Of a DNA stretch of 64,000 nt, positions 26,534 to 61,387 are shown in pieces. This DNA is from a virus. Where the stretch lies: IMG/VR virus record IMGVR_UViG_3300006793_000013; one strand, 5' to 3'. The notes under the pieces are model-generated. The model ran no database searches. It was given only the letters and a program-made list of their open reading frames with translations, and was not told where the DNA came from. The position numbers and the translations under genes were made by a program. Each line of letters begins with the position of its first letter. The stretch's first letter is position 1.

Positions 26534-27244
26534 CTATTTACCTGTTTTTACATATTTACGTACAGTGCCTATAAGGTCGTTACAGCGCAATCTAAGCATC
26601 AGTAGCGTACTATCGTTATCAACGTATATCCAACGTCTAGTGTTGAATATATCACGTTTAAGAAGCCAGTTATAGGTAGCATCAGTAAATGCAATAGCAG
26701 GTTTTCGTGAACGGCACCAGTCTGCTAAACTTTCAAGCTCTCCGAATGTTAAAGATTTAGGAGTTTTAAGATCTATCTGATAGTTATACATGCTGTGTGG
26801 TAATTCTTTTACAAATATTTCTTGATCACTATAAAGCAAAGTGTCTTCCATACCAGGAGCAGGCTCAAACCTGTTTCTAGTTATATCTGAAAACTCATAA
26901 CAAAGTGTTCCATAAAGTGTTTTGTTATTTGTATACACATCTAATATATCAGTTTCAATTCGAATAGTTACTTCATTCTTTGGTACTGAATTTATAATAC
27001 CTAAAAAAGATATCCATGTTTGACTATGCTTTAATATTGTATGAGCATTTCTTGTACGCCAAGTTGCTTCACTATAATCTGCTCCATCTGACTGTGGAGG
27101 CGGTCGTAAACCGGTCGCAAAGTCCAAGATCTCTTGATGACCGAGTGTACGTAAACTATATGCACCAGGTAACGTTAAACTAACTTTGTAGATATACTTG
27201 TTATAGAACTTCTTTTTAGTTTTCTTTGCTGTCTTAAGCATCAT
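26534..27244 (-). CDS. hypothetical protein
   Basis: 236 aa, overlaps the clpA stop. Confidence 0.6.
   Translation of the reverse strand: MMLKTAKKTKKKFYNKYIYKVSLTLPGAYSLRTLGHQEILDFATGLRPPPQSDGADYSEATWRTRNAHTILKHSQTWISFLGIINSVPKNEVTIRIETDILDVYTNNKTLYGTLCYEFSDITRNRFEPAPGMEDTLLYSDQEIFVKELPHSMYNYQIDLKTPKSLTFGELESLADWCRSRKPAIAFTDATYNWLLKRDIFNTRRWIYVDNDSTLLMLRLRCNDLIGTVRKYVKTGK
26535..26540 (-). promoter_or_regulatory. putative late promoter, leaderless
   Basis: TAAATA-GTAAT-ATG(26529). Confidence 0.55.
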
Positions 27245-29564
27245 TACTAGCCTGCGCCTTAGCAGCCAGCTTCTGTGCTTTACGTTCTTCTTTAGTCAAA
27301 GGCTTTGGCATAGGAGTAATTGTAAACGCTGGACCGTCTTTATCGATTGATACAGCAACTTTACCCCCGTCAACTAAATCTCCAAACAACACTCTCCTAC
27401 TTAAAGGTGTTTTAATTGTTTTATCAATTAATCTACCTAAAGGCCTTGCACCCATCTTAGGATTGTAACCTTTCTTAGATAACCAATTAACAGTATCTTC
27501 GTCAAGTGTAATTGCAATGTGCTTCTCTTTTAGTTGTGTATTAAGTTCTTTAATAAACTTATGAACAATACTTTTAACTACATCAGTAGATAGTTTAGCA
27601 AACTTAACTGTACCGTCTAATCTATTTCTAAACTCTGGAGCAAAAAACTTTTTAACTGCTTTATCATCTTCCGAGTCTTTCTCGTTATCAGCAAAGCCAA
27701 TTAATTTTGATTCATTATCAGCAGCACCTAAGTTACTTGTCATAATAAGAATAGTGTTACGTCCATCTGCACGTTTACCATTTGATCCTGTAACAAAACC
27801 GTTGTCCATAAACTGTAGCAAAATGTTTGATACATCTTTGTGTGCTTTTTCAATTTCGTCTAACAACAATACAGCATTAGGTGTTTCTTGTAACTTGTTA
27901 ATAAGTTGGCCAGCGTCATCATCAAATCCTACATAACCTGGAGGAGCACCAATTAATCTTGCAACACTGTGTTTTTCTTGATACTCTGACATATCAAAAC
28001 GTATTAGTGACATACCCATTTTCTCTGCAAGTTGTTTTGCTGTTTCTGTTTTACCTGTTCCTGTTGGTCCTAAGAATAAGAAACTACCAATTGGCTTGTC
28101 AGGATCTTTCATTCCACTTTGTGCAACAAAGATCTTATCAAGAATAGATTCAACTGCTTTGTCTTGTCCGAATACTGCTTTCTTCATTGACGCATCAAGT
28201 CCAGCAAGATTGTTACTTTCTTTTTGCGAAATAGTTTCTAGCGGCATACTTACCATTTTAGCAAGTTCGTATGTTACTTGTTCAATGTCAACAATTTGTG
28301 CAACTGTTTCAGTTTCGTCAGTTTCATTTAACTTGTATCTTGCTGAAGCACAATCAATAATATCAATTGCTTTGTCAGGTAACTTTTTATCAGCCATGTA
28401 CTTGACAGATAAGTTTACTGCTTGTTGAATTGCTTCATTTGTAATCTTAACATTATGATGCTGTTCGTAGTACTTACGTAAGCCTTTAATAATTTTTACT
28501 GTAAGATCTGCTGTTGGTTCGTCAATAGTTACACGTTGGAACCTACGCATTAATGCTCTATCTTTTTCAAAAGATTTTCTATACTCTTCCCAAGTAGTAG
28601 AAGCAATAACTTTCATGTTGCCTTTTGTAAGTGCAGGCTTCAGCATATTTGCTAAGTCGTTTGACTGTCCTTGTCCGCCTGAACCAGCACCACTCATCAT
28701 GTGTGCTTCATCAATGAATAAGATAATTTTACCTTTACGCTCAAGGGCCATTAGTACTGCCTTAATACGTTCTTCAAAGTCACCTCTATACTTACTACCA
28801 GCAACTAAAGAACTAATGTCTAAACTAAACACTAAATGATCTTGAATAAACTTAGGTACTTTCTTTTCATGAATCTTACGTGCAAGACCTTCAGCAATAG
28901 CAGTCTTACCAACACCTGGATCACCAACCATTAGTACGTTTGCTTTGTTACGTCTTGCTAATACTAATTCAATTTTTTCAATTTCTTCGTCACGTCCGAT
29001 AACAGGATCAATGACTCTTTGCTTTGCCTTCATAGACAAGTTAGTACAGAATTGATTAATAATTCTATCTAATTGATCTGGGCTTAGATTGATATCTTCT
29101 TCTCCGCCACCTTCAAACATTTCTTCACCAATATGATGTGCTTGGAAATGCTCTACAAATTTCTGTTTATCAATTCCACCTTTTGCTAAGAAGTAAAATG
29201 CAAAAGAGTTTTTCTCGCTCATAACACTAATGATTACGTCAGCAACTTCAATTTGATTACGTCCACTAAACAATACTTGTGTAAAGCATCTATTTAAAAC
29301 ACGTTCAACAGATGCAGTTTTCTTAGGATTTATATTCTTATCCTTAGAAACAATATCACCTAAGTTGTTTTTTAAGTAATGCTCTAGGTTCTTTTTAATA
29401 AAGTCAACATCAGCACCAAATTCTTTAAGACCACCTGCTGTATCTGGGTCAGCAAAAATTGAGTACACCAAATGCTCAATAGTAATATGTGTGTGCGTGT
29501 GGTTCTGCGCAACTACTACAGAGGCATCAAAAATCTTTTGTAATTGTTTACTAGGTTCAATCAT
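27234..29564 (-). CDS. clpA: ClpA-type AAA+ unfoldase
   Basis: Clp N-domain, Walker A GDPGVGKT and GPTGTGKT, FIDEAH/LLDEIEK, IGF loop, no ClpB middle domain. Confidence 0.93.
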   Translation of the reverse strand: MIEPSKQLQKIFDASVVVAQNHTHTHITIEHLVYSIFADPDTAGGLKEFGADVDFIKKNLEHYLKNNLGDIVSKDKNINPKKTASVERVLNRCFTQVLFSGRNQIEVADVIISVMSEKNSFAFYFLAKGGIDKQKFVEHFQAHHIGEEMFEGGGEEDINLSPDQLDRIINQFCTNLSMKAKQRVIDPVIGRDEEIEKIELVLARRNKANVLMVGDPGVGKTAIAEGLARKIHEKKVPKFIQDHLVFSLDISSLVAGSKYRGDFEERIKAVLMALERKGKIILFIDEAHMMSGAGSGGQGQSNDLANMLKPALTKGNMKVIASTTWEEYRKSFEKDRALMRRFQRVTIDEPTADLTVKIIKGLRKYYEQHHNVKITNEAIQQAVNLSVKYMADKKLPDKAIDIIDCASARYKLNETDETETVAQIVDIEQVTYELAKMVSMPLETISQKESNNLAGLDASMKKAVFGQDKAVESILDKIFVAQSGMKDPDKPIGSFLFLGPTGTGKTETAKQLAEKMGMSLIRFDMSEYQEKHSVARLIGAPPGYVGFDDDAGQLINKLQETPNAVLLLDEIEKAHKDVSNILLQFMDNGFVTGSNGKRADGRNTILIMTSNLGAADNESKLIGFADNEKDSEDDKAVKKFFAPEFRNRLDGTVKFAKLSTDVVKSIVHKFIKELNTQLKEKHIAITLDEDTVNWLSKKGYNPKMGARPLGRLIDKTIKTPLSRRVLFGDLVDGGKVAVSIDKDGPAFTITPMPKPLTKEERKAQKLAAKAQASNDA

Positions 29565-30083
29565 TTATTTTTGTCTCTTTTTTAATTTCTTCATAGCTAA
29601 TTGTAACTTCAACCGACTCACTTTGTCAACAAAACAAATGCCATTTAGGTGATCTAATTCATGCTGAAAGCATTTAGCAAGATAACCTTCTACTTTTGCT
29701 TCTTTCGTTTCGCCTTTTGAATTCTGATATTGTGCAACTATCATTTTAGGTCTCTGCAAATGTAACCATAAACCCGGAAAGCTCAAACAGCCTTCTTTAT
29801 CTAAAACATGTTCCTCACTTGCTTCTAAAATGACAGGATTAAAAACACAGAACGGTTCTGGAAAACCTGGTACGTTTTTTGATCCTATAGCAAACACTCT
29901 CTTTTTAATATTTAACTGGTTAGCAGCAAGACCAATGCCGTTGTGATTTAGCATAAAGTTACACATATCAAACTCTAATTTTTCTGGGTCTAGCTCTTCT
30001 TTATCAAAGTCCCATACTTCACTAGATTCATTTAGTGCTTTGTGTAAGCCTAATTTATAATCTAAATCTAATTTATAGTCCAT
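29565..30083 (-). CDS. def: peptide deformylase
   Basis: GIGLAANQ, EGCLS, HELDH. Confidence 0.95.
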   Translation of the reverse strand: MDYKLDLDYKLGLHKALNESSEVWDFDKEELDPEKLEFDMCNFMLNHNGIGLAANQLNIKKRVFAIGSKNVPGFPEPFCVFNPVILEASEEHVLDKEGCLSFPGLWLHLQRPKMIVAQYQNSKGETKEAKVEGYLAKCFQHELDHLNGICFVDKVSRLKLQLAMKKLKKRQK

Positions 30084-30882
30084 GTTTTATTTCCATAATT
30101 TTTTTACGTTGTTCGTCTGTATACTCTCTTGGCATAAGTGCTTTAATTTTTACTAACAAGTTTCCTCTCTTTTTTGTTCTTATATTTGGTAATCCTTCAC
30201 CGTTACAACTTAGTGTAGTATCGGGTGGTGTGCCTGCTGGTACGTTTAATTTAATTTGTCTGCCTGAAAGGGTAGTAACTACTGCGTGTGTGCCTAACAT
30301 CAAATCCCATATAAGAATTTTTTCTTCACATAGTATATTATCACCGTAGCGTTGGAACCTGGGGTGATTGCGAACACGAATATGCACCATTAGGTCTCCT
30401 GCTGGAATGTTTTGGATAGAATTATCTCCCATTCCTGCATACCTTACAGTTTGTCCTTCTTCAACACCTGCTGGAATATCAATATCGATTAGTTTAGTTC
30501 TGCCTGTAGGAAGTTGAACTTCCATAGCAATTTGTTTACCGTTGTAAACATCTTCCATTGTTACATCAAGAGCAAGATCAATTTGTCTATTCTGTGGTCT
30601 GCGTTGACCCATGTTAAAGCCAAAGTTTCTAAATAGATCTTCAAACCCATTGGGATTCATTCCTTCAAAACCGTTAGGGCCAAAGCCCTGTGGTTGAGGA
30701 TTATCGTACTGTTGTCTTTTTACAGGATCTTTTAGAGTTGAATATGCTTCGTTAATTTTCTTAAACTTTTCTTCATCACCACCCCTGTCAGGATGATGTT
30801 GCATACTTGCTTTCTTGTATGCTGATTTAAGTTCCTTTTCCGAAGCATCTCTATTGACGCCTAGTATAGAATAGTAGTCCAT
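30073..30882 (-). CDS. dnaJ: type II J-domain co-chaperone (DnaJ/CbpA-like)
   Basis: DYYSILGV, HHPDRGG, G/F-rich linker, C-terminal domain, no Zn finger. Confidence 0.92.
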   Translation of the reverse strand: MDYYSILGVNRDASEKELKSAYKKASMQHHPDRGGDEEKFKKINEAYSTLKDPVKRQQYDNPQPQGFGPNGFEGMNPNGFEDLFRNFGFNMGQRRPQNRQIDLALDVTMEDVYNGKQIAMEVQLPTGRTKLIDIDIPAGVEEGQTVRYAGMGDNSIQNIPAGDLMVHIRVRNHPRFQRYGDNILCEEKILIWDLMLGTHAVVTTLSGRQIKLNVPAGTPPDTTLSCNGEGLPNIRTKKRGNLLVKIKALMPREYTDEQRKKIMEIKHGL

Positions 30883-30911: not shown

Positions 30912-31205
30912 CTACTTCTTACTGGTTCCAGCGTATAAGCCAAACCATGCAGCACCAGCACCAACTACAACTGAAACAAGTCCTGACTGTTCCATAGTAG
31001 CAGCCGTTCCTAATCCCATGTACCAATGTACAACTTGATATAGCAAAACAATATACACTGTGATAAACAGTCTTGGAAATATTCTCCAACTGTCTACAGC
31101 TCTTGCAAGATCAATCCAAGTTTGGTATCTATTTTTAGAACTGTCAACAGTAGTTGTATCTACTTCAAGTTCGATATTTACTTTTTTAGTTTGAGTGTCG
31201 CTCAT
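30912..31205 (-). CDS. two-TM membrane protein, holin candidate
   Basis: Two hydrophobic segments; end of lysis cassette. Confidence 0.5.
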   Translation of the reverse strand: MSDTQTKKVNIELEVDTTTVDSSKNRYQTWIDLARAVDSWRIFPRLFITVYIVLLYQVVHWYMGLGTAATMEQSGLVSVVVGAGAAWFGLYAGTSKK

Positions 31206-31486
31206 TATCTCTTCCCCTCAAGATGTTTAATACGTTTTTCTAATTCGTCAATCTTTGATGTAATTTTAGGATATTTAACACGCCAGGCGTCCGGGTCATC
31301 CTGTAACCAAGTCCACCCCCAACGTACTGCTAGGTAAGCAAGAAAGTTATCAAACTTTGCAACTGCCCAAGTTGCCATTCTTGTGTCTTTAAACCAAAAC
31401 AAGAATGCTGCTCCAAGTAGAGAACCTGCGATTGCTGTGTAGATCCACAAGCGATCAGTCGCCATTCTTTCTATCATTTCCCACAT
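31205..31486 (-). CDS. membrane protein, holin/antiholin candidate
   Basis: N-terminal TM; TAAATA at 31512-31517 and GGAG SD. Confidence 0.5.
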   Translation of the reverse strand: MWEMIERMATDRLWIYTAIAGSLLGAAFLFWFKDTRMATWAVAKFDNFLAYLAVRWGWTWLQDDPDAWRVKYPKITSKIDELEKRIKHLEGKR

Positions 31487-31518: not shown

Positions 31519-31680
31519 TTAAAATGCACAATTAACTTCAGCTTTGGGCTTGACGTTAGGTAGTTGTTTGGTATCTGTTGATTCGATGCTTACATCTACG
31601 CCAGGTTTAAGTTTACAGCGTAGTTGTTGACAGGAGGCAAGCATAACTAGAAATGCTATTATGATCGCCCTTGTTAGCAC
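31519..31680 (-). CDS. small lipoprotein (53 aa, not in ORF track)
   Basis: GTG start overlapping the o-spanin stop; MLTRAIIIAFLVMLAS-C lipobox; two further Cys. Confidence 0.6.
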   Translation of the reverse strand: MLTRAIIIAFLVMLASCQQLRCKLKPGVDVSIESTDTKQLPNVKPKAEVNCAF

Positions 31681-32060
31681 TATTTTTCTTCAGCAGTTTC
31701 GCTTTCGTAGTACTCTTTATAAGCATCAATGATTTTGTTTTGCTTGATCATGTATGCACGGATTTGTGCATAATTTTTTCTAAAGTTTTCGTAGTCTTCG
31801 TCTGTTAATCCTATGATAACAGGATCAATGTTATTCTTTTCTAAGTCTTTAAATACTTGTTCTGCGTTTTCGCGATTAATTATGATCCAGCGAACTTGTT
31901 CTAGTGCTGCTGGTTCAGGTAAAGGTAAGTTTAATGGTCTGCGTTCAACTTCTGTTTTAAAAACTTCTAACGGCTTAATCGTACTACAACTAGTAAGCAA
32001 CGTAGTTAGGATTAGCAAGTTCAGGACAAACAGAATTGACCTTTGACTTCTTTGTAGCAT
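31680..32060 (-). CDS. outer-membrane spanin (Rz1-like lipoprotein)
   Basis: LLTS-C lipobox, Pro-rich segment, start overlaps the i-spanin 3' end. Confidence 0.7.
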   Translation of the reverse strand: MLQRSQRSILFVLNLLILTTLLTSCSTIKPLEVFKTEVERRPLNLPLPEPAALEQVRWIIINRENAEQVFKDLEKNNIDPVIIGLTDEDYENFRKNYAQIRAYMIKQNKIIDAYKEYYESETAEEK

Positions 32061-32475
32061 TTAACTCCTCTTCAGTTAACGGAGCGCCGCCTATAATTTC
32101 AAAACAACGTCTCTCGTGAACTTCATCTTTATTTAAAATTCTTTCAATGGACTTTGGTCTAGTTACTGATAAAGCCCCAATATCTCTCTTATCACCTGCT
32201 GCATTTAGTTTATTAAATTTTTCATTTAGGTTTCTATTTGCAGTTTCTAATACTCTATTTAAGTCCTCAAGGTCATTTCGGACTTTAATAATGGCTTCAA
32301 AATCTTTTTTCTGCTGTTCAATTACAGCCTTTTGCTCATTGATGCCATCTTCTAGTTTAACAATGTTTGCTTTTGCTGTGTCAAGATCTTTTTGTAATGC
32401 TTTCACATACATAAATCCGCCACCTGCCGCAGCAAGTACAACTAGAATCATTGCTATTCTAATACTACTGAACAA
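31990..32475 (-). CDS. inner-membrane spanin (Rz-like)
   Basis: N-terminal TM then long coiled coil, two C-terminal Cys. Confidence 0.7.
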   Translation of the reverse strand: MFSSIRIAMILVVLAAAGGGFMYVKALQKDLDTAKANIVKLEDGINEQKAVIEQQKKDFEAIIKVRNDLEDLNRVLETANRNLNEKFNKLNAAGDKRDIGALSVTRPKSIERILNKDEVHERRCFEIIGGAPLTEEELNATKKSKVNSVCPELANPNYVAY

Positions 32476-32695
32476 TGTTCTTCTCCACCTCGTTTAGTAA
32501 GTCTTGTACTGTTTCAATGTTAAATGTATCTTCTTCTGGAATATTGATTTCTAATTTTTTACAAACTTGATCGGTAACATCAACAATGTCAAAATCATCT
32601 CCATCTAAATCATCAATGAAATGACTTGCTTCAGTGATCTCTTTTCCAGTACCGAAATGTCTTTCCAGTACTTGCATGACTTGCTCTTTCCACAT
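32465..32695 (-). CDS. acyl-carrier-protein homologue lacking the phosphopantetheine Ser
   Basis: FIDDLDGDDFDIVDV aligns to ACP FVEDLGADSLDTVEL (Ser36 to Asp); IPEED..IETVQ matches IPDEE..ITTVQ. Confidence 0.75.
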   Translation of the reverse strand: MWKEQVMQVLERHFGTGKEITEASHFIDDLDGDDFDIVDVTDQVCKKLEINIPEEDTFNIETVQDLLNEVEKNIVQ

Positions 32696-32698
32696 AAT

Positions 32699-32842
32699 TT
32701 AATCCTCGTTAGTTTGTGCTTCGTATTTATACCTTGGATATTGACACACTACTATCTCTATTGGCTTATTGTCTCCATCCTTAAATGTTTCGACTAATCG
32801 GCCTTCGTGTTCCCTTCCACAGTTTTGACAAACTCCGGACAT
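32699..32842 (-). CDS. small Cys/His protein (47 aa, not in ORF track)
   Basis: MSGVCQNCGREHEGRLVETFKDGDNKPIEIVVCQYPRYKYEAQTNED; fills the endolysin-ACP gap. Confidence 0.55.
   Translation of the reverse strand: MSGVCQNCGREHEGRLVETFKDGDNKPIEIVVCQYPRYKYEAQTNED
32724..32731 (-). promoter_or_regulatory. T4-type late promoter TATAAATA upstream of the ACP-like gene
   Basis: Exact TATAAATA 28 nt before ATG(32695), GAGG SD in between. Confidence 0.55.
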
Positions 32843-32843
32843 T

Positions 32844-33683
32844 CTACTCCATCAACTTAGCAAGGGTCTTAGGACCTACAATGCCGTCTGCAACTAAACC
32901 ATTTTTGGTTTGCCACTCTTTAACAGCCTTTTCAGTACCAGGACCAAAGTCGCCGTCTGCTGCAATACCAAGTTTCTCTTGCATTTGCATAACTGCTGGA
33001 CCTTTTGCACCTTTTCTTAAAATACCAACAACTGGTGCTGGTGCTTTACTAGGATCAAAGTTTCCACCTAATACATCTAAGAAATGTTTAAAATGTTTTT
33101 TACGATCTTCAAGGCCTACTGTTCCGCCGTTAACCTTTTTACTCATAGCAACAATATCTTGATTGTCAGCCATAGCATTAATATTTCTTGTGTCCCAGAA
33201 CCAACATGCACTTTCTAATGCACCTTTGATAGTAGTTACATAATCAATTACTTCTTCAGCAGTCATGCCAATTGTTTTACCAAAGTCAGCATAGTTAGCA
33301 CGACCAGTTAATTGAATAACACCTCTACCACGGAAACGCCAACCATCTCCTGATGCTGTATCTCCATTACCAATTCTATTTGCGTATGTTACGTTTGCAA
33401 TTTTTTCTGGTTGTCTTGCATATTCGTTTGCATCTCTGCCACCACGTGCAAAGTATTTTCCAAATACTGCATCTAATGCTTTTGCACTATAGTTTAAATT
33501 TTCTTCAAGTACTCTAAAGTTAAGACTTTCGTGAGCGCATTGTGCTAAAAATCCTGCTGCTCTATCGACAGTATCAATTTCATACTTAGGAAGCATCTCA
33601 AGAAGTGCTTCATACCATTCGTCTACTTTACTGTTACCGTGCAATACTTCTGCACACATCTCTTTTGTAAACTCAAATTTCAT
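32844..33683 (-). CDS. endolysin: GH19 domain plus PG_binding_1 domain
   Basis: FLAQCAHES, FRGRGVIQLTGRANY, VNGG; C-terminal ADGDFGPGT/ADGIVGPKT. Confidence 0.9.
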   Translation of the reverse strand: MKFEFTKEMCAEVLHGNSKVDEWYEALLEMLPKYEIDTVDRAAGFLAQCAHESLNFRVLEENLNYSAKALDAVFGKYFARGGRDANEYARQPEKIANVTYANRIGNGDTASGDGWRFRGRGVIQLTGRANYADFGKTIGMTAEEVIDYVTTIKGALESACWFWDTRNINAMADNQDIVAMSKKVNGGTVGLEDRKKHFKHFLDVLGGNFDPSKAPAPVVGILRKGAKGPAVMQMQEKLGIAADGDFGPGTEKAVKEWQTKNGLVADGIVGPKTLAKLME

Positions 33684-34435
33684 TATTCAATCCTTTGTAA
33701 TATCATGGACTTCTGTCCATTAGTAAATACGAAGTCAGCGCCAACTTTGTTAATATTGTAATCGCCTAGTACTTTGCTTAACCAAAATGTTTCAGCAGAA
33801 GCATCTAAACCAATATCCGTAGTTGCATCAAGACCTTCGATTATATCTTTTGTTGCGCCCTCTTTTATCCATTTCATCTTGATAACATTACCGAAGGGCT
33901 TGTAAAATGTAATGATATCATCTTCAAGTTCTAAGTTGTCCATAAGCGTTTTAGAAAAGAAAGTCTTTACTTCGTCTGTTCTTACCTGTGCTAGTTTCGC
34001 TTCGTACATTTGTTTATCTGTAGGAATAACTTTGCTTAAATTTTCTCTTGTAGCTTCTCTTTTCTTATCGTCTTTATAGTATTGAAACTTCCAATCTTCA
34101 ATGCCTGTTAGTTTAGATACACCATAAAGTAAATCGTCAATTTGTTCTGCTAGCCTTTTGTTTCTTTCAATTTCTACAAATACTGAATATTCGCCTTCTT
34201 CGTTCTCTCCTGAACTAACATCTGCATCAAGCACAAATGAAAATCCTTTTTCGATAAACTCCATTAAATCTCTTGCTGGGTATCTGTCTTTTGCTTGGAA
34301 TGTTACAACACAAACATCTCTATCTTCTCCCATCTTTGATCTAAACTTATCTACTTCAAACATAGGATATACTAGATCCACTAGATCGTTTTTACGTAAT
34401 CCTTCTTCTAAAACTTTATTGTGCTGCTGTGTCAT
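33683..34435 (-). CDS. hypothetical protein
   Basis: 250 aa ORF in late operon. Confidence 0.65.
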   Translation of the reverse strand: MTQQHNKVLEEGLRKNDLVDLVYPMFEVDKFRSKMGEDRDVCVVTFQAKDRYPARDLMEFIEKGFSFVLDADVSSGENEEGEYSVFVEIERNKRLAEQIDDLLYGVSKLTGIEDWKFQYYKDDKKREATRENLSKVIPTDKQMYEAKLAQVRTDEVKTFFSKTLMDNLELEDDIITFYKPFGNVIKMKWIKEGATKDIIEGLDATTDIGLDASAETFWLSKVLGDYNINKVGADFVFTNGQKSMILQRIE

Positions 34436-34952
34436 CTGCTGGTGCCTCTTGTTGTGCTGCTACTTCTTGTGCAGGCTCAAGGTTCATATTAACTGCATTG
34501 TTCGCCATGATGTCTTGTACTTTATTTCTATCAAGGTTCTTATAACCGCGATCAATGTTTTTCATTAAACGTTTTGGCATAGCAATTTTCACCATCCAAA
34601 TGTTTTCGTAGTCGATTTTACCTTTTCTTGTACCAGGTCTAATATCGTCTACTGCTTTAATTTTTCTAACTTTAGCAATAGCAGATTCTGCAAAGCCTAC
34701 TTTGCATCCGTATTCTTTTAATCTTTTACCGCCTTGTGGTTCAGGCATATTTTCATATGGCCACATAAACGTACATTCAACAAAGTATCTTGATTCGTTA
34801 GGACCAGACACTAATTCGCCATCTAACCAGCCGTCATACACATACACGTCTAATTCATCTAAGACACGTTCGAAGTCTTTTAGTAGATTTAGGCTGTTAT
34901 TTGAACCATAAATTTGTTCAATGTTTGCAATAATATCTTTAGTAGTTGCCAT
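34416..34952 (-). CDS. hypothetical protein
   Basis: 178 aa; TAAATA at 34983-34988 and GGAG SD. Confidence 0.65.
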   Translation of the reverse strand: MATTKDIIANIEQIYGSNNSLNLLKDFERVLDELDVYVYDGWLDGELVSGPNESRYFVECTFMWPYENMPEPQGGKRLKEYGCKVGFAESAIAKVRKIKAVDDIRPGTRKGKIDYENIWMVKIAMPKRLMKNIDRGYKNLDRNKVQDIMANNAVNMNLEPAQEVAAQQEAPADDTAAQ

Positions 34953-38973: not shown

Positions 38974-39162
38974 ATGATTAAGAATCTTTCACTAAACCTT
39001 GAAGTAGGACAAGAAATCCTTGTCGGTAAAAATAATAAACGTGCTAGAATTACTAAAATCGAGTTCCATGAAAAGTCAGGGGAGATTACAATTAATACGA
39101 CACAAGGCCCTCGTAGAGCCTTGACATTTAGGTTAATGCCCGAAATACAATACGCTTATTGA
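38974..39162 (+). CDS. hypothetical protein
   Basis: 62 aa; TAAATA at 38932-38937 and AAGGAG SD. Confidence 0.6.
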   Translation: MIKNLSLNLEVGQEILVGKNNKRARITKIEFHEKSGEITINTTQGPRRALTFRLMPEIQYAY

Positions 39163-39563
39163 GCACCAAAGTCACCTGCGTCAAATGTAGCGGTGTCACC
39201 ATCGCTATAATGTTGTCCCCAATAGGCTAGTTCTGGTTCAAAGTCCTCGGTACCTACAGCGAGGATGGCGGACTTCTCAACCTTTTGTACCTCGATTTCA
39301 CCGCGATCGGGACAATCCACTTTGATCTTTCGTGTCCAACGACCATGCTCAATTAAGATCCAATCTTCTGATTTGTAGTCGTCTGTGTTTGTAGCACCTT
39401 TAGCATAAACTTTTGCCCAACGACATTTGACTCCGTGTGCTTTTGCATCATCACTTGCCATGATAATGCCGCCTTTAGTTACAGTTTCACCAAAGTGCAT
39501 GTTATATACTAACACGTCATCATGTAATGGTGTAAGTTTACCTTTGATCATCTTTGCCTCCAT
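39156..39563 (-). CDS. groES: GroES-like co-chaperonin
   Basis: LTPLHDDVLV, TKGGII mobile loop, AKVYAKG. Confidence 0.75.
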   Translation of the reverse strand: MEAKMIKGKLTPLHDDVLVYNMHFGETVTKGGIIMASDDAKAHGVKCRWAKVYAKGATNTDDYKSEDWILIEHGRWTRKIKVDCPDRGEIEVQKVEKSAILAVGTEDFEPELAYWGQHYSDGDTATFDAGDFGAQ

Positions 39564-41157
39564 AAATATGATTCTTCAAAAATTCGTAATGACTAGGAAG
39601 TTTAGAAACATAATCAATTACAAAGTCTCTGTAATCTTCATAACTGCGTTTCTGAAAATCTAGTTCTTCTAACTTAGTTACCCCGCCCCAGTACGGTCCT
39701 TCGTGTAAAACGATTTCTTTAGTTGCTTTTGGTTTTACACCCATACCAGCCGCTAAAAATAAAGAGGGCGGAAAGTCTGCTGCTCCACTATAGGTATTAC
39801 CTAATGTAACTCCGCCGATCAAAGATTGATATTGTGTGTTTCTTAAATTATAATTTTCGCCTACAAGTTCCGGACAATACTCGTGATACTCTGTTGCATG
39901 TTTCCAATAAGGAGTATCGTCACGCATTGAAAGAGCATAGTGAGTTGAAATAAAATCTCTAAATTTTAATACTTCTGATTCAACAGCGTAATTGAATCCT
40001 TCTTTCTCTGTTCTTGTTACCCAACCATTTCTTCTATTCAAACACTCTACTAACTTAACTAAGTTTTCATGCGTTGTTAGTAGTCCTGTAGATTCTAAAG
40101 GTTCTACAAAACCATAACTTAGTCCAATGCCAACAACGTTGCGTACCCAACCTCTACGTCTACGGCCATGCTTAATATTAATGTGAAACATTTCTGCATT
40201 GTCTGCACGTTCTTTTGAACCTGTTGTTTCTAGGTGTTTTCTAAATTCTTCTTTTGCTGCGTCAGCAGTTGTAAATTTTGATGAGTATACATACCCAGTA
40301 CCAATACGATTCCATAATGGAATATGCCATACCCAACCATTATCTAATGCATGACAGTCTGTGTAAGGGTGCATTTCTTTTTCAACATCTTCATAAGGTA
40401 CTCTACATGCCCAAGCACAGTCGTTTGCTAGATAATCATCAAATGACAAAAACTCTTGCTTCATTGCTTTTTCTAAAAGCATTGATTGAAATCCTGTACA
40501 ATCAATATAAAGGTCTGCTGATACTGTTTCTCCGTTATCTAATAAAAGACCGCTTATTTGATCGTCTTCCATATCAACGTGTACTACATCGTGATTTAAC
40601 AATGTTACGCCATTAGGCATAGCAATATTGTTTTTAAGATATTGTCCTAGTTTTGCAGCATCAACATGATATGCAGTATCCCATTTAAAACTATAATGTC
40701 TTAATTTTTCATCTGCATTTGTTGTGCCTTTGCACATATCAGAAAGATATGTGTTAGCGGTAGCATAAAATTTAGCGAATGTATCAGGAGTAAATTCATC
40801 TGGATATACAGTTGCTAACTCTGACCAAGCATCTATTCCGCCTGGTTTATCAGTCATATCAAAACCTAAACTAAAAGGATATTGAAAACTGGTACCGTCG
40901 TTCTCTCTAAAGTTTGTAAACCTGATTGAATTTTTGTATGTAGCATTACACTCTGCCATCCAGTCTTTATCTTCAAGACCTAGCAAATCTAAAAATTTTG
41001 TAATGTGACCGAGTGTACTTTCACCTACGCCTACAGTTTTTATGTTAGGTGATTCAATAATGGTTATGTCGATGTGTGGACATAGTTTAGACAGTGCGGC
41101 TGCTGACATCCACCCTGAACTTCCACCGCCGACAATCACCAATGATTCTACTCTCAT
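39538..41157 (-). CDS. flavin-dependent halogenase (PrnA-like)
   Basis: GGGSSG FAD motif, ATYKNSIRF, AYHVDA, IDCTGF, GWVWHIPL, FVEPLESTG. Confidence 0.88.
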   Translation of the reverse strand: MRVESLVIVGGGSSGWMSAAALSKLCPHIDITIIESPNIKTVGVGESTLGHITKFLDLLGLEDKDWMAECNATYKNSIRFTNFRENDGTSFQYPFSLGFDMTDKPGGIDAWSELATVYPDEFTPDTFAKFYATANTYLSDMCKGTTNADEKLRHYSFKWDTAYHVDAAKLGQYLKNNIAMPNGVTLLNHDVVHVDMEDDQISGLLLDNGETVSADLYIDCTGFQSMLLEKAMKQEFLSFDDYLANDCAWACRVPYEDVEKEMHPYTDCHALDNGWVWHIPLWNRIGTGYVYSSKFTTADAAKEEFRKHLETTGSKERADNAEMFHINIKHGRRRRGWVRNVVGIGLSYGFVEPLESTGLLTTHENLVKLVECLNRRNGWVTRTEKEGFNYAVESEVLKFRDFISTHYALSMRDDTPYWKHATEYHEYCPELVGENYNLRNTQYQSLIGGVTLGNTYSGAADFPPSLFLAAGMGVKPKATKEIVLHEGPYWGGVTKLEELDFQKRSYEDYRDFVIDYVSKLPSHYEFLKNHIYGGKDDQR

Positions 41158-42095: not shown

Positions 42096-42710
42096 TTAAC
42101 TAAATGAGCCTAAGTATCTCATGTATATGAATTCTTGGCTATGACGCCAAACTTCAACAAACACAGGATCTGTGTTAGAAGTTAATGTAAGTGATGCTGG
42201 AAAACTGCTATCTTTCTTAATTACAGTTCCGCCTGTAGTTGTAAATGTTACAGCTCTATCACCAACACCTGATGTATAAAGTTCCAAAGTTACTTTGCTA
42301 ACACCACTTTGGGCTGCTGTTTCTTCACCATTTGCAGGATCTCCAGCAAAGTTTGTAAACTGTAAGTTAAGAGCAGATGAAGCGTTAATAATAAAGTATG
42401 AGCCAGTTTGGTAATCAATCTCTGTTGTTGTACCTTCAACAAGTGGTACTGTACCCAAATTGTTAAGTTTATCTCTGTTATTTGCCATAACAGCTCTTGT
42501 AACTTGGTTAAGTTGAAAGTCATTAATGTATGCACCACCGCCTGGATTAGATAATCTAGCAGTAGTTGACTCAAGACTAGTAATTTCAGTCTTGGCTGTG
42601 TTTAAACTTGTTTTAATAGTATCGAAATTATCCCTGAATGTTTGGGTGTCGTTATCGGCACCTGCTACAGGAAAGTTTTCGTTTATGCTCAAATAATTTA
42701 TATTACTCAC
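42096..42710 (-). CDS. putative virion structural protein
   Basis: FPVAGADNDTQTFRDNF..IK resembles the N-termini of neighbouring baseplate genes. Confidence 0.55.
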   Translation of the reverse strand: MSNINYLSINENFPVAGADNDTQTFRDNFDTIKTSLNTAKTEITSLESTTARLSNPGGGAYINDFQLNQVTRAVMANNRDKLNNLGTVPLVEGTTTEIDYQTGSYFIINASSALNLQFTNFAGDPANGEETAAQSGVSKVTLELYTSGVGDRAVTFTTTGGTVIKKDSSFPASLTLTSNTDPVFVEVWRHSQEFIYMRYLGSFS

Positions 42711-45181
42711 GGTTTCTTTTCTCCACGTTGCGGGAATACAAAGTATTTATCCTCAATTTGCCCGTCAACTATATCTATGATATAGCGATCTGCAACAAAG
42801 TTAATAGTCTTGAAATCAAACGCTTTTTGTTTAATTCTAGCTATAATACTGTCGGCTTTCCCTGGTTTTGTATAGCATAATACTAATGCTTTAGTAAATC
42901 CAAGCTCAAAAGTGCTTGTTTCTTGTATACTTCTCATCCATAGAGGTAAAAACCCTCTATCTCTTTCCCCAACAGTTTGTATTCTCTTTCTCATGTTATT
43001 TACTGAATTAGGAAAAATTCTTTGATGATCTGAATCACTTACTAATGGAACATCACTATCAATACTAATACTGTCGTAACTTACAATGATTTTACTATTA
43101 ATATCATCTGGTAATTCTACTACTTGTGATATGCTTTTACCATTCTTTTCAAGATCGTCAATTATATCAACATATACAACTTCATACAACAATTCAGATG
43201 TAGTTGGGTCTTTTGCTACTGCTTTTTTAACATTACCAAACGTAAAGCGTTTGTTATAATGATTTCTTCCCATTGCAGAAACAAACAGTTCTGCTGTTTT
43301 ACTTTCAATACCAGCAAATAGTAATGCTGTTAATTCACTCTGTACTCCGTAGTTCTTATCACCATAACGATAAATGTCCTCTGGTTTAAAAACAGTAGAG
43401 TCAGTAATAAAGTTAAACCATGATAACCTTTTCTCTTTTGATTGTAATGCTCTAACATATATGTTTGAGAATACTGTTTGATTATCAGCAACTACTTTAA
43501 TTTTAAATTCTCTCAATGCTTCAGCAAAGTTTGCACCGTCTTGTGCTTTAACTGTAAATTTAAACTCTTTATCAAAAGATGATCGACCTTGATCAAACGT
43601 TAAACTAAAGTCTCGAGATCTAGTTGATGAATCTTCTCCAGCACTATCCTGCTCATAAAATCTAGTTAGTCCTAACCCTTTATCATCTTCAAATTGTTTT
43701 ACTTTACCTTGAATAAGTCCTGTAGGTAAAAATTCTAATCCTGCAGGTAAGTTTCCACTTTCAAGTGTGTATAAAATTCTGCCACCATACAATAAACTTT
43801 TTGCTTCGACATATAAGTTACTTGGCTCGTTAGGTTTAATAGTTCCTCTATCAGAAGGTGTAATCCATTCAATTGAACTTTCAACCTCACCAATGATGTC
43901 TATGTTGAATGTTCTTTCAACAGTTGAAACACCTGGTACCCAAAAATCAGTATCCGTAGGCAATCTATTTTGGTTCTCTACAATAGCGATGTAAATAATT
44001 CCATCATAAACAATTGCTTCGTTAACAGTATAAATTCTAGTACTACTCCAATTACCTACAAGTGTGTAATTAATTGTTGCTAAGTTTGCAGGAAAGTTTA
44101 CAGCTCTCATAGTGAACTGATAATTTTTAGTTACTGCTGCTTGATACGGAACTTTACCAGAAAGGTCTCCTGTTACAGTATCGAGAGTAAGACCGGGTGG
44201 TATAGTACTTGGAGTACCATCTGGATTATTTTCAACTAAGAAATAAGTTATTGTACCTGATAGTGTAGGTGGATCGTAAACATCTAAAGCAACAGTTACA
44301 AAGTTATTTGCTCTATATCTACCTAAGTAAGGATCTGTAATCCATAGTGGTTGTCTGTTACCACTATTATCTGCTTGGAATAAATTTGTATCAACTTGTA
44401 GTAATGTGTTGTCTGCTTTTAAAAATTCTTCAGTAACAACATAGATTTTAAATGTTCTATGTATAGCATTAATACCGTCAGTAACTGCAATACTAAATGT
44501 ATATTCTCTACTTAATTTTCTAGGTATTTGACTTCCTTCTGCATAGTCAAATCTTTGCGTATCGTAAAAGTATGTGTCAAAACCAGTTGATGTATTTTTT
44601 GCAATATCAAGTGGAACAGTATCAAAAGAATGTGTATCGTATGCTCCAGTGTTAGTTGAATTGTACTCTACAGCCTGCACAGGCTCCGTAAAACCGCTGA
44701 TCTTTCCTGTTTGGGACAATGACAAGCCCGGAGGTAAAAGACCGCTGTTAGGCACCATATAGTAGCTTAGAGTCTCCCCTGCTGTAAGATCTTTGTCTGT
44801 TGCCTGTAATTGAAAGTCTATTTTAGAATCGTCAAGTGCAAAGTATGCATCACCTTGCCCAACATTTAAATAACCTCTTTCTGTAATCCATTCTGGAAAG
44901 TCTGCTCCTGTTATAGACATACTAAATGTTCTATCCATACACCCACCAGTACCGTCATCAGCTCTGATAACAAATTTATTAGTTGTATGTTTTGTAACTT
45001 CTCCAGGTGCGCCTTTAATTACACCATCAGATAAAACACAACCTACAGGAAGTGAACCAGCAATTATAGAATATGAAATTGTACTAGAAGTATCAGTAGA
45101 CGCTTCTATTGGAATGTTGACTGTGATCCTTTCTTCGAAAGTACCTAGGTCTCCTGCTGGCGTAATCCAAGTAATTGCCAT
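42707..45181 (-). CDS. baseplate wedge-like protein with putative Ig repeats
   Basis: Repeated (S/A)GxLPxGL.L...G.I.G units and W.T..G.LG linkers. Confidence 0.65.
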   Translation of the reverse strand: MAITWITPAGDLGTFEERITVNIPIEASTDTSSTISYSIIAGSLPVGCVLSDGVIKGAPGEVTKHTTNKFVIRADDGTGGCMDRTFSMSITGADFPEWITERGYLNVGQGDAYFALDDSKIDFQLQATDKDLTAGETLSYYMVPNSGLLPPGLSLSQTGKISGFTEPVQAVEYNSTNTGAYDTHSFDTVPLDIAKNTSTGFDTYFYDTQRFDYAEGSQIPRKLSREYTFSIAVTDGINAIHRTFKIYVVTEEFLKADNTLLQVDTNLFQADNSGNRQPLWITDPYLGRYRANNFVTVALDVYDPPTLSGTITYFLVENNPDGTPSTIPPGLTLDTVTGDLSGKVPYQAAVTKNYQFTMRAVNFPANLATINYTLVGNWSSTRIYTVNEAIVYDGIIYIAIVENQNRLPTDTDFWVPGVSTVERTFNIDIIGEVESSIEWITPSDRGTIKPNEPSNLYVEAKSLLYGGRILYTLESGNLPAGLEFLPTGLIQGKVKQFEDDKGLGLTRFYEQDSAGEDSSTRSRDFSLTFDQGRSSFDKEFKFTVKAQDGANFAEALREFKIKVVADNQTVFSNIYVRALQSKEKRLSWFNFITDSTVFKPEDIYRYGDKNYGVQSELTALLFAGIESKTAELFVSAMGRNHYNKRFTFGNVKKAVAKDPTTSELLYEVVYVDIIDDLEKNGKSISQVVELPDDINSKIIVSYDSISIDSDVPLVSDSDHQRIFPNSVNNMRKRIQTVGERDRGFLPLWMRSIQETSTFELGFTKALVLCYTKPGKADSIIARIKQKAFDFKTINFVADRYIIDIVDGQIEDKYFVFPQRGEKKP

Positions 45182-46045: not shown

Positions 46046-48241
46046 CTATACCCAACCGCCAATTGCAATTCTGCCCCAGCCCGTACTCTTGCGGACATAA
46101 ACATAATTGTCATCAACTCTAATTTCACCAACTTCTGCTGCTTCTGTTTCTGAACCTGGAGCAGCACTGTTTGGTGCAATCTTACCTGTAACTGTGCCTG
46201 TTGCACCATCAATTACTACGGAAGAATCATCACCAAATACTGAACCTCTAATATCAATAGTTGCAGTACCATTTAGCACTGCTGCTGGTATTGTACTACT
46301 AACACCATCTACTAACAATGTACTATCATCACCAAACACGCTACCTTTAATATCAGTTACAGGACTTCCTGTATGAGATACTTCGCCTGTTGTAGCATTG
46401 TACATTAGCATAGTTGTTCCAACTACACTTCTAATTGGTTTAATTACTAAACTACTTGCTGTGGTGTTCTCTAATACACCGCTAGTTGCGTTAATTGCAA
46501 TACTGTTTGCGGCTTGGCTTGTTGTACCAGCACCTACACCAATTGCTAGTGCATTTTGTCCTTGATTTGTAACACCTGCACCTGCACCAATTGCTGTTGC
46601 ATTTTGGCCTTGGTTAGTTACACCTGCGGAATTTCCCACAGCCGTTGCAGTTGTACCTTGACTTGTTTTACCTGCTTCCCAACCTATTGCTATTGAGTTT
46701 TGTCCTTGACTTGTTTGACCTGCGTAATAACCTACCGCAATACTAAAGTCTCCTTGACTCGTTCCACCTGCGTCAATACCAACTGCTACTGCGTCACCGC
46801 CTTGATTAGTTTCACCTGAGTTTACACCAATTGCTACTGAATTTGCACCTTGATTTTCTTGACCTGCTTCGTATCCAATCGCAACTGCAAGACTTCCTTG
46901 ATTAGTTTCACCTGTACTTTTACCAAGTGCAATCTTTAATTCACTTGTTCTTAAACTTGTTGTGTCTACTGCACCAACAATCTTACCTTCAACACCGTCA
47001 ACTAGTAATCCTGAGTCGTCTGCAAACACTGATCCTGTAATATCAATCTTCGGATCAACTGCAATAGTAATCTTATCTTCAATTGAAGTAAGTGTAATAC
47101 CAATACCGTAACCAGGTTCAAACGTTAAAATATCAGCAGTACTATCTGCTGCAATACTAGTTTGTCCGTCAACAGCAATTTGTTGGAATGTTGGAACTGC
47201 CGGAGCACCGTTTGAAACAGTTACAACACCTGTTGCAGGATCTGTTGAAACTGTAATACCAAAACCTTGTTGTACTTCTAACACACCTGTGTTAGTAAAC
47301 TGCACAGCACCAGTTATTGAACTAACTGTAATACCTTCGCCTGCTGTTCTTCCTGCTGCTCTGCCTGGAATGTTAGTTGTGTTTTGCGCAGATGTAACAC
47401 CTGTGTTAGTAATTGTTACATTACCTGTTGCTGAACTAACTGTAATACCTGTACTTGCAATTGCTTGTGTTACACCATCGTTAATAAATGTAATACTGTC
47501 TGCATCACTTCCTGCTACTAGTTGTACACCAGTACCACCGTAAAATGATAAAGTATCATTAGTATGATCAGCTTCAACAATATCACCGTCATCTAAATTA
47601 ATATATCTAAAATATCTTTTCTCTGGATCAATAATTAAGTCACCGTTAATAGTTGAACCAAATGGTAAATCAACTTTACCACTTTCGCCTTTAACGTGTG
47701 CCGTACCTAAGTATAATCCGTTGTCTTCGTTGCCTGCTGATGCTAGTGTTTCAGCAATGTGTACTTCTTTCCATTTATGTGTAGCATCACCTAAAACTTT
47801 TTGTGCATCGTCTGCTGGTTTAACAGAAGTTGTAAGTGCTTCTAAGTTAAGTGTACTAAATTCATTTAGACCTTGTGTATTACCACCTGATGCATATGCA
47901 GTAAAGCCTGTGCCATTAACTGCTGAACTAATTCCTGCATCTGTGTAAAGAGCAAAAGTATTACTTGTTAGTACATCTGCATAGTAAGTATTACCATTTA
48001 GTTGTGTCATGCCTACTACATCTGTAATAGTTACACGTTGTCCGTCAGTAAGTCCGTGTGCTGTTGAAGTTGTAACTACAACAGGACTTGCTTGAGTTGC
48101 ATTAGTAATTGTTTTTTGTTCGCCACCTGCAAGTGTTGCACCGATAGTTACAAAGTTTGCATTGACTTCATCTAATGCACTTTTAAACTTATCCCATAAA
48201 AGTGGTGGATTACCTGGCGTTATGTTTGTATTATATGCCAT
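46046..48241 (-). CDS. tail fibre/adhesin with FCCH-like domain and YadA-like repeats
   Basis: ITNATQASPVVVTT..HGL domain; three GSVFxDDS repeats; nine 16-aa repeats. Confidence 0.7.
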   Translation of the reverse strand: MAYNTNITPGNPPLLWDKFKSALDEVNANFVTIGATLAGGEQKTITNATQASPVVVTTSTAHGLTDGQRVTITDVVGMTQLNGNTYYADVLTSNTFALYTDAGISSAVNGTGFTAYASGGNTQGLNEFSTLNLEALTTSVKPADDAQKVLGDATHKWKEVHIAETLASAGNEDNGLYLGTAHVKGESGKVDLPFGSTINGDLIIDPEKRYFRYINLDDGDIVEADHTNDTLSFYGGTGVQLVAGSDADSITFINDGVTQAIASTGITVSSATGNVTITNTGVTSAQNTTNIPGRAAGRTAGEGITVSSITGAVQFTNTGVLEVQQGFGITVSTDPATGVVTVSNGAPAVPTFQQIAVDGQTSIAADSTADILTFEPGYGIGITLTSIEDKITIAVDPKIDITGSVFADDSGLLVDGVEGKIVGAVDTTSLRTSELKIALGKSTGETNQGSLAVAIGYEAGQENQGANSVAIGVNSGETNQGGDAVAVGIDAGGTSQGDFSIAVGYYAGQTSQGQNSIAIGWEAGKTSQGTTATAVGNSAGVTNQGQNATAIGAGAGVTNQGQNALAIGVGAGTTSQAANSIAINATSGVLENTTASSLVIKPIRSVVGTTMLMYNATTGEVSHTGSPVTDIKGSVFGDDSTLLVDGVSSTIPAAVLNGTATIDIRGSVFGDDSSVVIDGATGTVTGKIAPNSAAPGSETEAAEVGEIRVDDNYVYVRKSTGWGRIAIGGWV
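46490..46915 (-). repeat. about nine 16-aa (48-nt) beta-roll repeats
   Basis: Consensus T[NS]QGxxAxA[IV]GxxAGx; boundaries approximate. Confidence 0.8.
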
Positions 48242-55267: not shown

Positions 55268-55446
55268 ACTGCTCGTCGAGCAAGTTCTTTTTTTACTTTT
55301 ACTATAAGTTTAGGCTTTGCATTACTGCTATCTATATAGTCTACAAGCTCTTGCGTAGCCGTAGATTTCATATAGAAGTGTTGAGTTTCAGTTTTGCCTG
55401 TTGTTTTGTTTCTAATTTTTTGTGATGGTTTAAATTTTACAGGCAT
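55264..55446 (-). CDS. hypothetical protein
   Basis: 60 aa coupled to the iscU stop. Confidence 0.55.
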   Translation of the reverse strand: MPVKFKPSQKIRNKTTGKTETQHFYMKSTATQELVDYIDSSNAKPKLIVKVKKELARRAV

Positions 55447-55874
55447 TATTCAGGCCCTCCGTTATGCATACGTTTTGCTTTCTTTTCATCCCAGTCCTGT
55501 AAGGCTCTTTTTATAGAATCCTCTGCTAGAACTGAACAGTGTAATTTAATAGGTGGAAGGTCAAGTGCTTTTGCTATGTCTTTATCCTTTATTTCTAGTG
55601 CTTGGGCCATTGTAAGTCCTTTAAGCATTTCAACAAACATAGTTGAACTTGCTATTGCACTACCACAACCGTATGTTTTGAATTTCACATCTTCAATAAC
55701 ATCAGTATCTGGATTTACTTTAAGATCAAGTTTCATAACATCACCACATGCTGGTGCACCGGTCATGCCTGTTGCCACGTTTGGGTCTTTAGGATCAAAG
55801 CGACCAACACCGTGAGCATTAGGGTTTGCAAGAACAGATTCGAATCTGTCTACTACTTCTTTTGAATATGCCAT
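55446..55874 (-). CDS. iscU: Fe-S scaffold protein IscU/NifU
   Basis: GAPACGDVMKL, KTYGCGSAIAS, LPPIKLHCSVLAED; likely start MAYSKEV at 55874. Confidence 0.93.
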   Translation of the reverse strand: MAYSKEVVDRFESVLANPNAHGVGRFDPKDPNVATGMTGAPACGDVMKLDLKVNPDTDVIEDVKFKTYGCGSAIASSTMFVEMLKGLTMAQALEIKDKDIAKALDLPPIKLHCSVLAEDSIKRALQDWDEKKAKRMHNGGPE

Positions 55875-55896
55875 AATGTAATGTGATTTTTCGTTT

Positions 55897-55938
55897 ATTA
55901 TACAACAACTTAGTGAAGTTGTCAACCAATTGTATTTA
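55897..55938 (-). promoter_or_regulatory. tandem early and late promoters for iscU
   Basis: TTGACA(55925-20)-17-TATAAT(55902-897), TAAATA at 55938-33. Confidence 0.65.
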
Positions 55939-55982
55939 GCCATGATTTTTATCTCTTTTATATTTTATGACAGCCCTAAGTG

Positions 55983-60619: not shown

Positions 60620-61387
60620 CTACTCGGCATGACGAACTATGCTGTCAACGACAGATTCAAAGTCATGTAAATGAAGTGCATTTGGACCATCGCTTGGTGC
60701 GTTATCTGGATCAGTATGTACTTCTAAAAAGAAATTTCTAATACCCAAAGCACTACCTGCCCTACATAAGCCAGGAACGTAATCCCTATTGCCGCCGCTA
60801 CTACTTCCATTACCACCTGGTTTCTGTACTGCGTGGGTGGCGTCAAGCACAATAGGAGTGCTGTAATTATTAAGCATATAGTCCAAGCCGGTAAAGTCAA
60901 CAACAAGTGTATTGTATCCAAAACTTGTTCCCCTTTCTGTTATCCATACTTCTTTGGCACCTTCTGTTTTTGTTAAAATGCTTTCAACATCCCAGGGTGC
61001 AAGGAACTGACCTTTCTTAATATTAACAATCTTATCTGTAGCACAAGCAGCCTTTACTAAATCTGTTTGTCTACATAAGAACGCAGGAATTTGTAATGCA
61101 TCAACTACATCATTATATGCTTCAGTAATGTAATCAATTTGTTCTACAGTGTGTACATCAGTAATTGTGTTTACACCGAACTGTTCTTTAATTGCTTCAA
61201 AGTCAGTAAGTGTTGCATCCATACCAACACCACGTATTCCTTTGATGCTAGATCTATTTGCTTTATCAAAACTGGCTTTGAAATAATATTCAATGCCGTG
61301 TTTGTCGCAAACACGTTTACACTCTTTTGCAATCATTGCACTGTCAGTCAGTGTTTCATGCTGACATGGTCCTGCGATTATTCTCAT
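60620..61387 (-). CDS. kdsA: KDO8P synthase
   Basis: IAGPCQHE, KASFDKANRSS, QIPAFLCRQTDL, KKGQF, ERG, DATHAVQ, FLEVH..P..A.SDG. Confidence 0.95.
   Translation of the reverse strand: MRIIAGPCQHETLTDSAMIAKECKRVCDKHGIEYYFKASFDKANRSSIKGIRGVGMDATLTDFEAIKEQFGVNTITDVHTVEQIDYITEAYNDVVDALQIPAFLCRQTDLVKAACATDKIVNIKKGQFLAPWDVESILTKTEGAKEVWITERGTSFGYNTLVVDFTGLDYMLNNYSTPIVLDATHAVQKPGGNGSSSGGNRDYVPGLCRAGSALGIRNFFLEVHTDPDNAPSDGPNALHLHDFESVVDSIVRHAE

Follow-up and report, generated by a model that had tools for sequence, protein, structure and literature searches.

The window analysed here, a 64-kb stretch of viral DNA, carries on its minus strand a gene block with a lysis cassette, in which genes for two virion structural proteins are followed by an endolysin, a 47-aa ORF, a gene with an acyl carrier protein (ACP)-like product, an i-spanin, an o-spanin, a 53-aa ORF, two membrane proteins of 93 and 97 aa, DnaJ, peptide deformylase and a ClpA/B-like ATPase, in this order. 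The two virion structural proteins (34416-34952 and 33683-34435) were assigned by PHROG, and the endolysin (32844..33683), which combines a GH19-type catalytic part with a C-terminal PG_binding_1 domain, by both Pfam and PHROG (phrog_181, E 2.8e-69). Downstream of the ACP-like gene (32465..32695, 76 aa) lies the 161-aa i-spanin (31990..32475), which was identified by Rz-like spanin PHROGs and a family alignment and has an N-terminal TM helix, a coiled coil and a TTG start within the ACP-like gene, the two genes sharing 11 nt. The i-spanin in turn shares its 3' end with the o-spanin (31680..32060), a 126-aa lipoprotein with an LTSC lipobox that falls in phrog_812 (Rz-like spanin); an o-spanin was found in 79 of 80 related loci, and the lipobox is also present in relatives. 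Further downstream are the 53-aa ORF (31519..31680), a small lipoprotein-like cassette member with an LASC lipobox that is found in 23 of the 80 relatives, and the 93-aa (one TM helix) and 97-aa (two TM helices) membrane proteins (together 30912..31486), which are kept in 59 and 50 of the 80 relatives, respectively. The 97-aa protein belongs to phrog_10198, a family with no assigned function, and neither of the two matches a named holin family; by topology only, they are the sole holin/antiholin candidates near the endolysin. Directly after the cassette, a tightly packed proteostasis block (27234-30882, minus strand) encodes the ClpA/ClpB-like double-AAA+ ATPase (776 aa), the peptide deformylase (172 aa) and a DnaJ with its C-terminal domain (269 aa).

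The initial annotation of this DNA had placed the ACP-like gene between the endolysin and the two spanins, and the cassette is as it described, except that the 47-aa ORF (32699..32842, minus strand) intervenes after the endolysin. This ORF encodes a CxxC motif and a third Cys, and it matched no Pfam or PHROG family. It is a conserved cassette member, with homologues between endolysin and i-spanin in 49 of the 80 related cassettes, whether or not these contain the ACP-like gene, and is possibly a tiny zinc-ribbon protein. The annotation had also credited the ACP-like gene with a TATAAATA motif and a GAGG of its own. Both sequences are present on the minus strand, the GAGG ribosome-binding site at 32704..32707, 8 nt ahead of the ATG, and the T4-late-promoter-like TATAAATA at 32724..32731, within the 3'-terminal part of the 47-aa ORF, but the significance of the latter is doubtful. 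Across the whole window the motif occurs twice against 7.7 expected occurrences, and all of 100 shuffled sequences contained at least two, so that it is under-represented; ahead of the ACP-like gene it was found only in nine near-identical relatives and was absent from 50 others. Being neither above chance nor conserved, it was rejected as a conserved late promoter belonging to this gene. In most relatives the ACP-like gene abuts or overlaps its neighbours in an operon-like arrangement.

Predicted fold and serine site of the ACP-like protein

The 76-aa product is strongly acidic (20 acidic and 6 basic residues in its translation) and matches PF00550 (PP-binding) over residues 6-68 with 24.7 bits, above the gathering score of 20.8, while its relatives score 27-40 bits against the same profile. 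A PHROG search of the window returned only ACP families for it and placed it in the family "acyl carrier protein", and a profile of its own family, when compared to the PDB, matched AcpP-type ACPs at E 1e-20, with DDLdgDdlD aligned to EDLGADSLD. An AlphaFold2 model built with 15 relatives (mean pLDDT 92.7) predicted helices at residues 2-14, 34-48, 54-57 and 63-74, which is the four-helix topology of ACP, and the best Foldseek matches of this model were all ACPs (TM ~0.83, rmsd 1.7 Å). The protein nevertheless fell under every cut-off of the NCBIfam AcpP equivalogs (TIGR00517 and PRK00982), scoring at best 42.8 against 71, and 32.9 against 70.45 for TIGR00517.

We found no signal peptide or hydrophobic segment in the translation, and the model is that of a soluble acidic globule. 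None of the annotated ORFs of the window is a fab gene, the neighbours of the ACP-like gene being the endolysin, the spanins, small membrane proteins and DnaJ. A search for fusions to domains that could identify a partner also came out negative: 121 longer matches yielded only three with Glu at the serine site, and their extra parts matched nothing.

The phosphopantetheine serine of ACP is replaced in this protein by Asp34 (codon GAT, 32594..32596, minus strand), at the N-terminus of helix II. Across the 56 distinct members of the family that were collected from viral loci, the equivalent site is occupied by Glu in 30, Asp in 24 and Pro in two, and by Ser in none, and all four acidic codons are used across the family. 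Asp is retained in close homologues (75-99% identity), and Glu takes its place in one at 62%; in a representative library of 1.8 billion proteins, the nearest matches all carried Asp or Glu, and the more distant ones were ordinary Ser-bearing ACPs. The dN/dS of the gene relative to unsaturated relatives was 0.02-0.18, indicating purifying selection. As an acidic residue is conserved at this site in relatives, and Ser never occurs there, the loss of Ser is a trait of the family rather than an error, and the protein cannot be phosphopantetheinylated at the canonical site. A sequencing error or strain mutation was ruled out as the source of Asp34 by the retention of an acidic residue from 99% down to ~30% identity and the use of all four acidic codons, and a decaying pseudogene by the dN/dS values together with the confident fold prediction. 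In an ML tree of 165 ACP-like sequences the Ser loss needs 10 changes, of which well-supported branches force only one, so that Ser may have been lost once or several times.

These results bear out the core of the initial annotation, namely an acidic 76-aa protein that aligns with ACP and carries Asp in place of the modified Ser, and both the profile and structure prediction and the conservation of the site among homologues came out in its favor. The protein is thus confirmed as real, conserved and unusual, with a predicted carrier fold that was kept without the carrier site. A further suggestion, that the acidic residue mimics a phosphate, fared less well. Asp, Glu and Pro are all favored at helix N-termini, and since two relatives carry Pro, there is no need to read the carboxylate as mimicking a phosphate.

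Other positions of the family are strongly constrained as well. L30, D33 and D36 are invariant in the 56 members and position 39 is always acidic, while I52, E55, T62, V63 and V70 are nearly invariant and a family-specific His13 is found in 52 of the 56. With an offset of +2, we take D33, D36, position 39, I52, E55, T62 and V63 to correspond to D35, D38, E41, I54, E57, T64 and V65 of E. coli AcpP, which are the residues that dock partners. As judged by this alignment, the acidic docking surface of AcpP on helices II and III is retained in the family. The protein resembles bacterial AcpP (PF00550; TIGR00517), and especially its apo form, in length, four-helix fold (TM 0.83), strong negative charge and the docking positions of helices II and III. 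It differs from AcpP in having Asp, Glu or rarely Pro for Ser, in scoring below the NCBIfam cut-offs and in its His13, and its gene is phage-encoded, optional and located in a lysis cassette rather than in a fab cluster.

Distribution among relatives and known phages

A motif scan, which by design finds only Asp and Glu forms, returned 60 viral loci with the ACP-like gene, and in about 50 of these it was directly followed by an i-spanin of 161-166 aa, overlapping by 1-26 nt, and then by a lipobox o-spanin. To this we added an unbiased scan that started from the i-spanin, of which the best 80 loci were taken. The ACP-like gene lay directly upstream of the i-spanin in 39 of these 80 loci (22 Glu, 17 Asp, 0 Ser), whereas in the other 41 the i-spanin comes after the endolysin or the small CxxC ORF. 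On the i-spanin tree, the presence and absence of the gene requires at least six changes, and the switches between Asp and Glu at least five. No copy was found anywhere in a 268-kb relative estimated to be 75% complete. The synteny anticipated by the initial annotation thus recurs in many relatives, but roughly half of the syntenic cassettes lack the gene. Its absence from 41 of the 80 cassettes and from the 268-kb relative indicates that endolysin and spanins work without it.

The gene also occurs elsewhere. Two of the 41 loci counted as lacking it, L131 (3627-3845, plus strand) and L133, have a copy with Pro (ADPFD) at a later point of the cassette, which in L131 is located downstream of the spanins, between membrane proteins of 92 and 133 aa. 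In seven loci of another phage group (L050-L054, L057 and L059), an Asp or Glu copy is positioned just before a T4 gp15-like tail sheath stabilizer, with no spanin nearby; in such loci (L052, for example) the ACP-like and gp15-like genes overlap by 1 nt at their start and stop, and the neighbor on the other side of the L052 gene (3441-3656) is a virion structural protein by PHROG (phrog_11591). Across the best 80 loci we found no cassette gene that co-varies with the ACP-like gene, as endolysin type (GH19 or GH108), the small CxxC ORF, the 93-aa and 97-aa proteins, the 53-aa lipoprotein, DnaJ and peptide deformylase were all independent of it. Taken together, the ACP-like gene is a dispensable addition to the lysis and structural block, located mostly at the junction of endolysin and i-spanin, and not a core lysis component. 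In four related loci (L015-L018; for example L016:6114-6644), a MotA/ExbB-family gene and two further genes stand directly after the spanins.

Two groups of cultured phages encode comparable proteins. Vi01_122c of Salmonella phage Vi01 (Ackermannviridae), annotated as "acyl carrier protein", also has Asp for Ser (DLGGDDLD). Its gene is on the same strand as, and ~2 kb upstream of, an Rz-like spanin, with a DnaJ-like gene nearby; unlike the gene of the window, it is not spanin-adjacent. At 105 aa, with an N-terminal extension and a very divergent long branch, Vi01_122c may or may not share an origin with the protein of the window. In the Rak2-like Erwinia phage pEa_SNUABM_47 (Eneladusvirus), gp157 is a 134-aa putative ACP whose gene is directly followed by those for a membrane protein and an annotated o-spanin; in contrast to the protein of the window it keeps Ser (LGLDSLD), and it has a 55-aa N-terminal extension and 22% identity to it. 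Rak2-like phages belong to a lineage related to that of the phage studied here, as indicated by matches of a virion protein of the window. No similarity was detectable between the spanins of the Erwinia phage and those of the marine phages, and together with the 22% identity this leaves common descent of the two ACP-spanin pairs unproven.

The location of an ACP gene next to spanins has been remarked on in Eneladusvirus phages, in which the ACP was also detected in virions by LC-MS/MS (PMC7760394), and one peptide of an annotated ACP homologue was reported from virion mass spectrometry of the Vi01-like phage Sajous1 (PMC10892097). The view that no phage lysis accessory of this kind had been described therefore has to be narrowed, since a Ser-bearing ACP beside spanins was already reported (PMC7760394), and the annotated ACP of Vi01 has Ser replaced by Asp as well. 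We found no published functional study of the Vi01-like or Rak2-like proteins or of that of the window. For the public record, deposited phage "acyl carrier protein" genes such as that of Vi01 call for correction, as their products cannot be carriers.

Proposed function and alternatives

We tentatively favor the view, to which we assign a probability of roughly 40%, that the ACP-like protein is a binding-only mimic of AcpP that is made with the lysis genes and docks on an AcpP client, preferably a host enzyme of envelope lipid synthesis. Such a protein would keep the fold and docking surface of AcpP and, having a carboxylate for Ser, would never carry an acyl chain. It would presumably be made late, in step with the endolysin and spanins, as suggested by the packed same-strand block and the overlap with the i-spanin start. 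It would then act by docking on a protein that normally binds AcpP, and as it has no co-varying phage neighbor and keeps the residues by which AcpP faces its partners, docking on a binder of host AcpP appears the most economical assumption. Its presence with both endolysin types, again with no co-varying phage neighbor, would fit a partner that is host-encoded or universal. Enzymes of the PlsB/PlsX or LpxA/LpxD class would be our first candidates because the window encodes KdsA (3-deoxy-8-phosphooctulonate synthase; 60620-61387, minus strand), which passed two NCBIfam equivalog cut-offs (333.5 against 242 and 320 against 314); the phage thus appears to supply a precursor of the LPS core (KDO) and to act already on LPS precursor supply. 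The protein would occupy such an enzyme as a dead-end competitor, as apo-ACP does in E. coli, so that membrane or LPS synthesis would be trimmed while the cell is readied for lysis, in line with the lysis decoy hypothesized in the initial annotation. It is an add-on of the cassette, outside the core lysis machinery.

Several observations speak against this binding-only mimic, namely the 41 of 80 cassettes without the gene, the seven loci in which it stands beside a tail gene, the two Pro copies, and the annotated ACPs in virions of two cultured phages. As to the partner, SpoT and the stringent response, which had been listed among the possible targets, have become less attractive, as SpoT was reported not to bind apo-ACP (PMC3896788).

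The location within the lysis block, overlapping the i-spanin start, could also point to a regulator of lysis timing that binds the two holin/antiholin candidates (93 and 97 aa) on their cytoplasmic side and tunes the time of membrane permeabilization. T4 RIII, a small soluble helical antiholin of the cytoplasm, binds holin T, and would be the model for such a regulator, yet the analogy is functional only, as the ACP-like protein has no sequence or family relationship to RIII and its fold is of another origin. The Pro-type copy of L131, located directly between the 92-aa and another membrane protein, and Foldseek matches in which ACPs are accessory subunits on membrane proteins (EmbB, MmpL5 and the FtsHi motor) agree with this idea. 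The membrane proteins occur, however, just as often whether or not the ACP-like gene is present (28 of 39 against 31 of 41 loci for the 93-aa protein, and 26 of 39 against 24 of 41 for the 97-aa protein), the i-spanin has almost no cytoplasmic part to bind, no similarity to known antiholins emerged, the PHROG matches being confined to ACPs, and the tail-gene setting in other phages does not fit. We regard a role in lysis timing as unlikely, though not negligibly so. A factor that chaperones virion assembly, or is packaged and delivered into the next host, seems more doubtful than that, even though the two genes upstream of the endolysin encode virion structural proteins, the seven tail-gene loci include one (L052) flanked by a further such protein, and annotated ACPs were detected in Eneladusvirus virions (PMC7760394) and, by one peptide, in Sajous1 (PMC10892097). 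This mass spectrometry is thin, with one retrieval in Sajous1 and a Ser-bearing Erwinia protein that is only 22% identical; half of the relatives with the same structural genes do without the ACP-like gene, and the retained docking residues of AcpP would be left unexplained.

Improbable to a slightly greater degree is a mimic used against defence or for host takeover, which would sequester an AcpP partner from outside lipid metabolism, such as an SMC protein of the MukB type, or a carrier-protein-dependent defence system. The patchy, accessory distribution with at least six gains or losses is typical of counter-defence genes, the protein is strongly acidic, and AcpP as a bound MukBEF subunit is among the Foldseek matches, but the gene lies in a lysis and structural block, whereas anti-defence genes would mostly be expected in the early region, and none of its neighbors is defence-related. 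We give least credence to a partnership with phage Fe-S assembly proteins. In many relatives iscS and iscU follow within ~1 kb of the spanins, and IscU is found within 2.5 kb in 14 of 39 loci with the ACP-like gene against 4 of 41 without it, a weak enrichment that is confounded by phylogeny; ACP in NFS1-ISD11 complexes was also among the Foldseek matches. The bridging LYR protein is, however, known from eukaryotes only, the IscU (NifU_N) homologue of the window (55446-55943, minus strand; 72.5% identity to the post-spanin IscU of relatives) is 23 kb away from the ACP-like gene, no IscS was found anywhere in the 64 kb, and other relatives with the ACP-like gene have MotA/ExbB-like genes or DnaJ downstream instead. 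The precedent on which this partnership is modelled is the mitochondrial ACP of Plasmodium, which lacks phosphopantetheine and still stabilizes the Isd11-Nfs1 desulfurase complex in Fe-S biogenesis (PMC8547962). It shares with the protein of the window, as we propose to read the latter, retention for protein binding after loss of the cofactor; in contrast to the dispensable phage gene it is eukaryotic, organellar and essential, with Isd11-Nfs1 as its partner.

The binding-only AcpP mimic can also be extended, as a long shot, to large myoviruses of several lineages (marine jumbo and Vi01-like), which would share an effector whose carboxylate copies the phosphodiester of holo-ACP and which shuts down a specific AcpP-dependent envelope enzyme of the host in programmed lysis. 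If true, lysis cassettes would encode four functional classes of protein, with this effector added to holin, endolysin and spanin. ACP is among the most connected of bacterial proteins, and a cofactor-less viral ACP under selection could serve as a natural probe for those of its interactions that matter in infection, while the protein itself possibly represents a new phage route to envelope manipulation before lysis. Its partner could be sought in Vi01-like and Rak2-like phages, which are in culture and tractable.

Phage lineage, host hints and other genes of the window

Among 50,697 phage records searched by megablast and tblastn, no cultured phage matched the ACP-like locus. A 250-aa virion protein of the window matches the Rak2-like and Atu_ph07 group of jumbo myoviruses, and the nearest viral record, estimated to be 19% complete at 67 kb, suggests a genome of ~350 kb. 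Relatives of the window come from marine metagenomes. The phage KdsA is 78% identical to the KdsA of two contigs of 153 and 335 kb (L168 and L169; PBPT01000082.1 and PBPT01000016.1), compared to no more than 51% for other bacterial matches. Both contigs were binned into a Red Sea Neomarinimicrobiota MAG, and they may be mis-binned relatives of the jumbo phage or a hint of its host; the ACP-like matches of this MAG are ordinary Ser-bearing ACPs. Near the kdsA of the window are genes for an HAD-IIB hydrolase and a QueD-like protein. The window further contains a GroES-like gene (39156-39563) and, on the minus strand, genes for a tryptophan-halogenase-like protein (39538-41157; phrog_2928, E 6e-147) and an 824-aa protein with an He_PIG Ig-like domain (42707-45181), as well as an ORF of 2218 aa (48241-54897).
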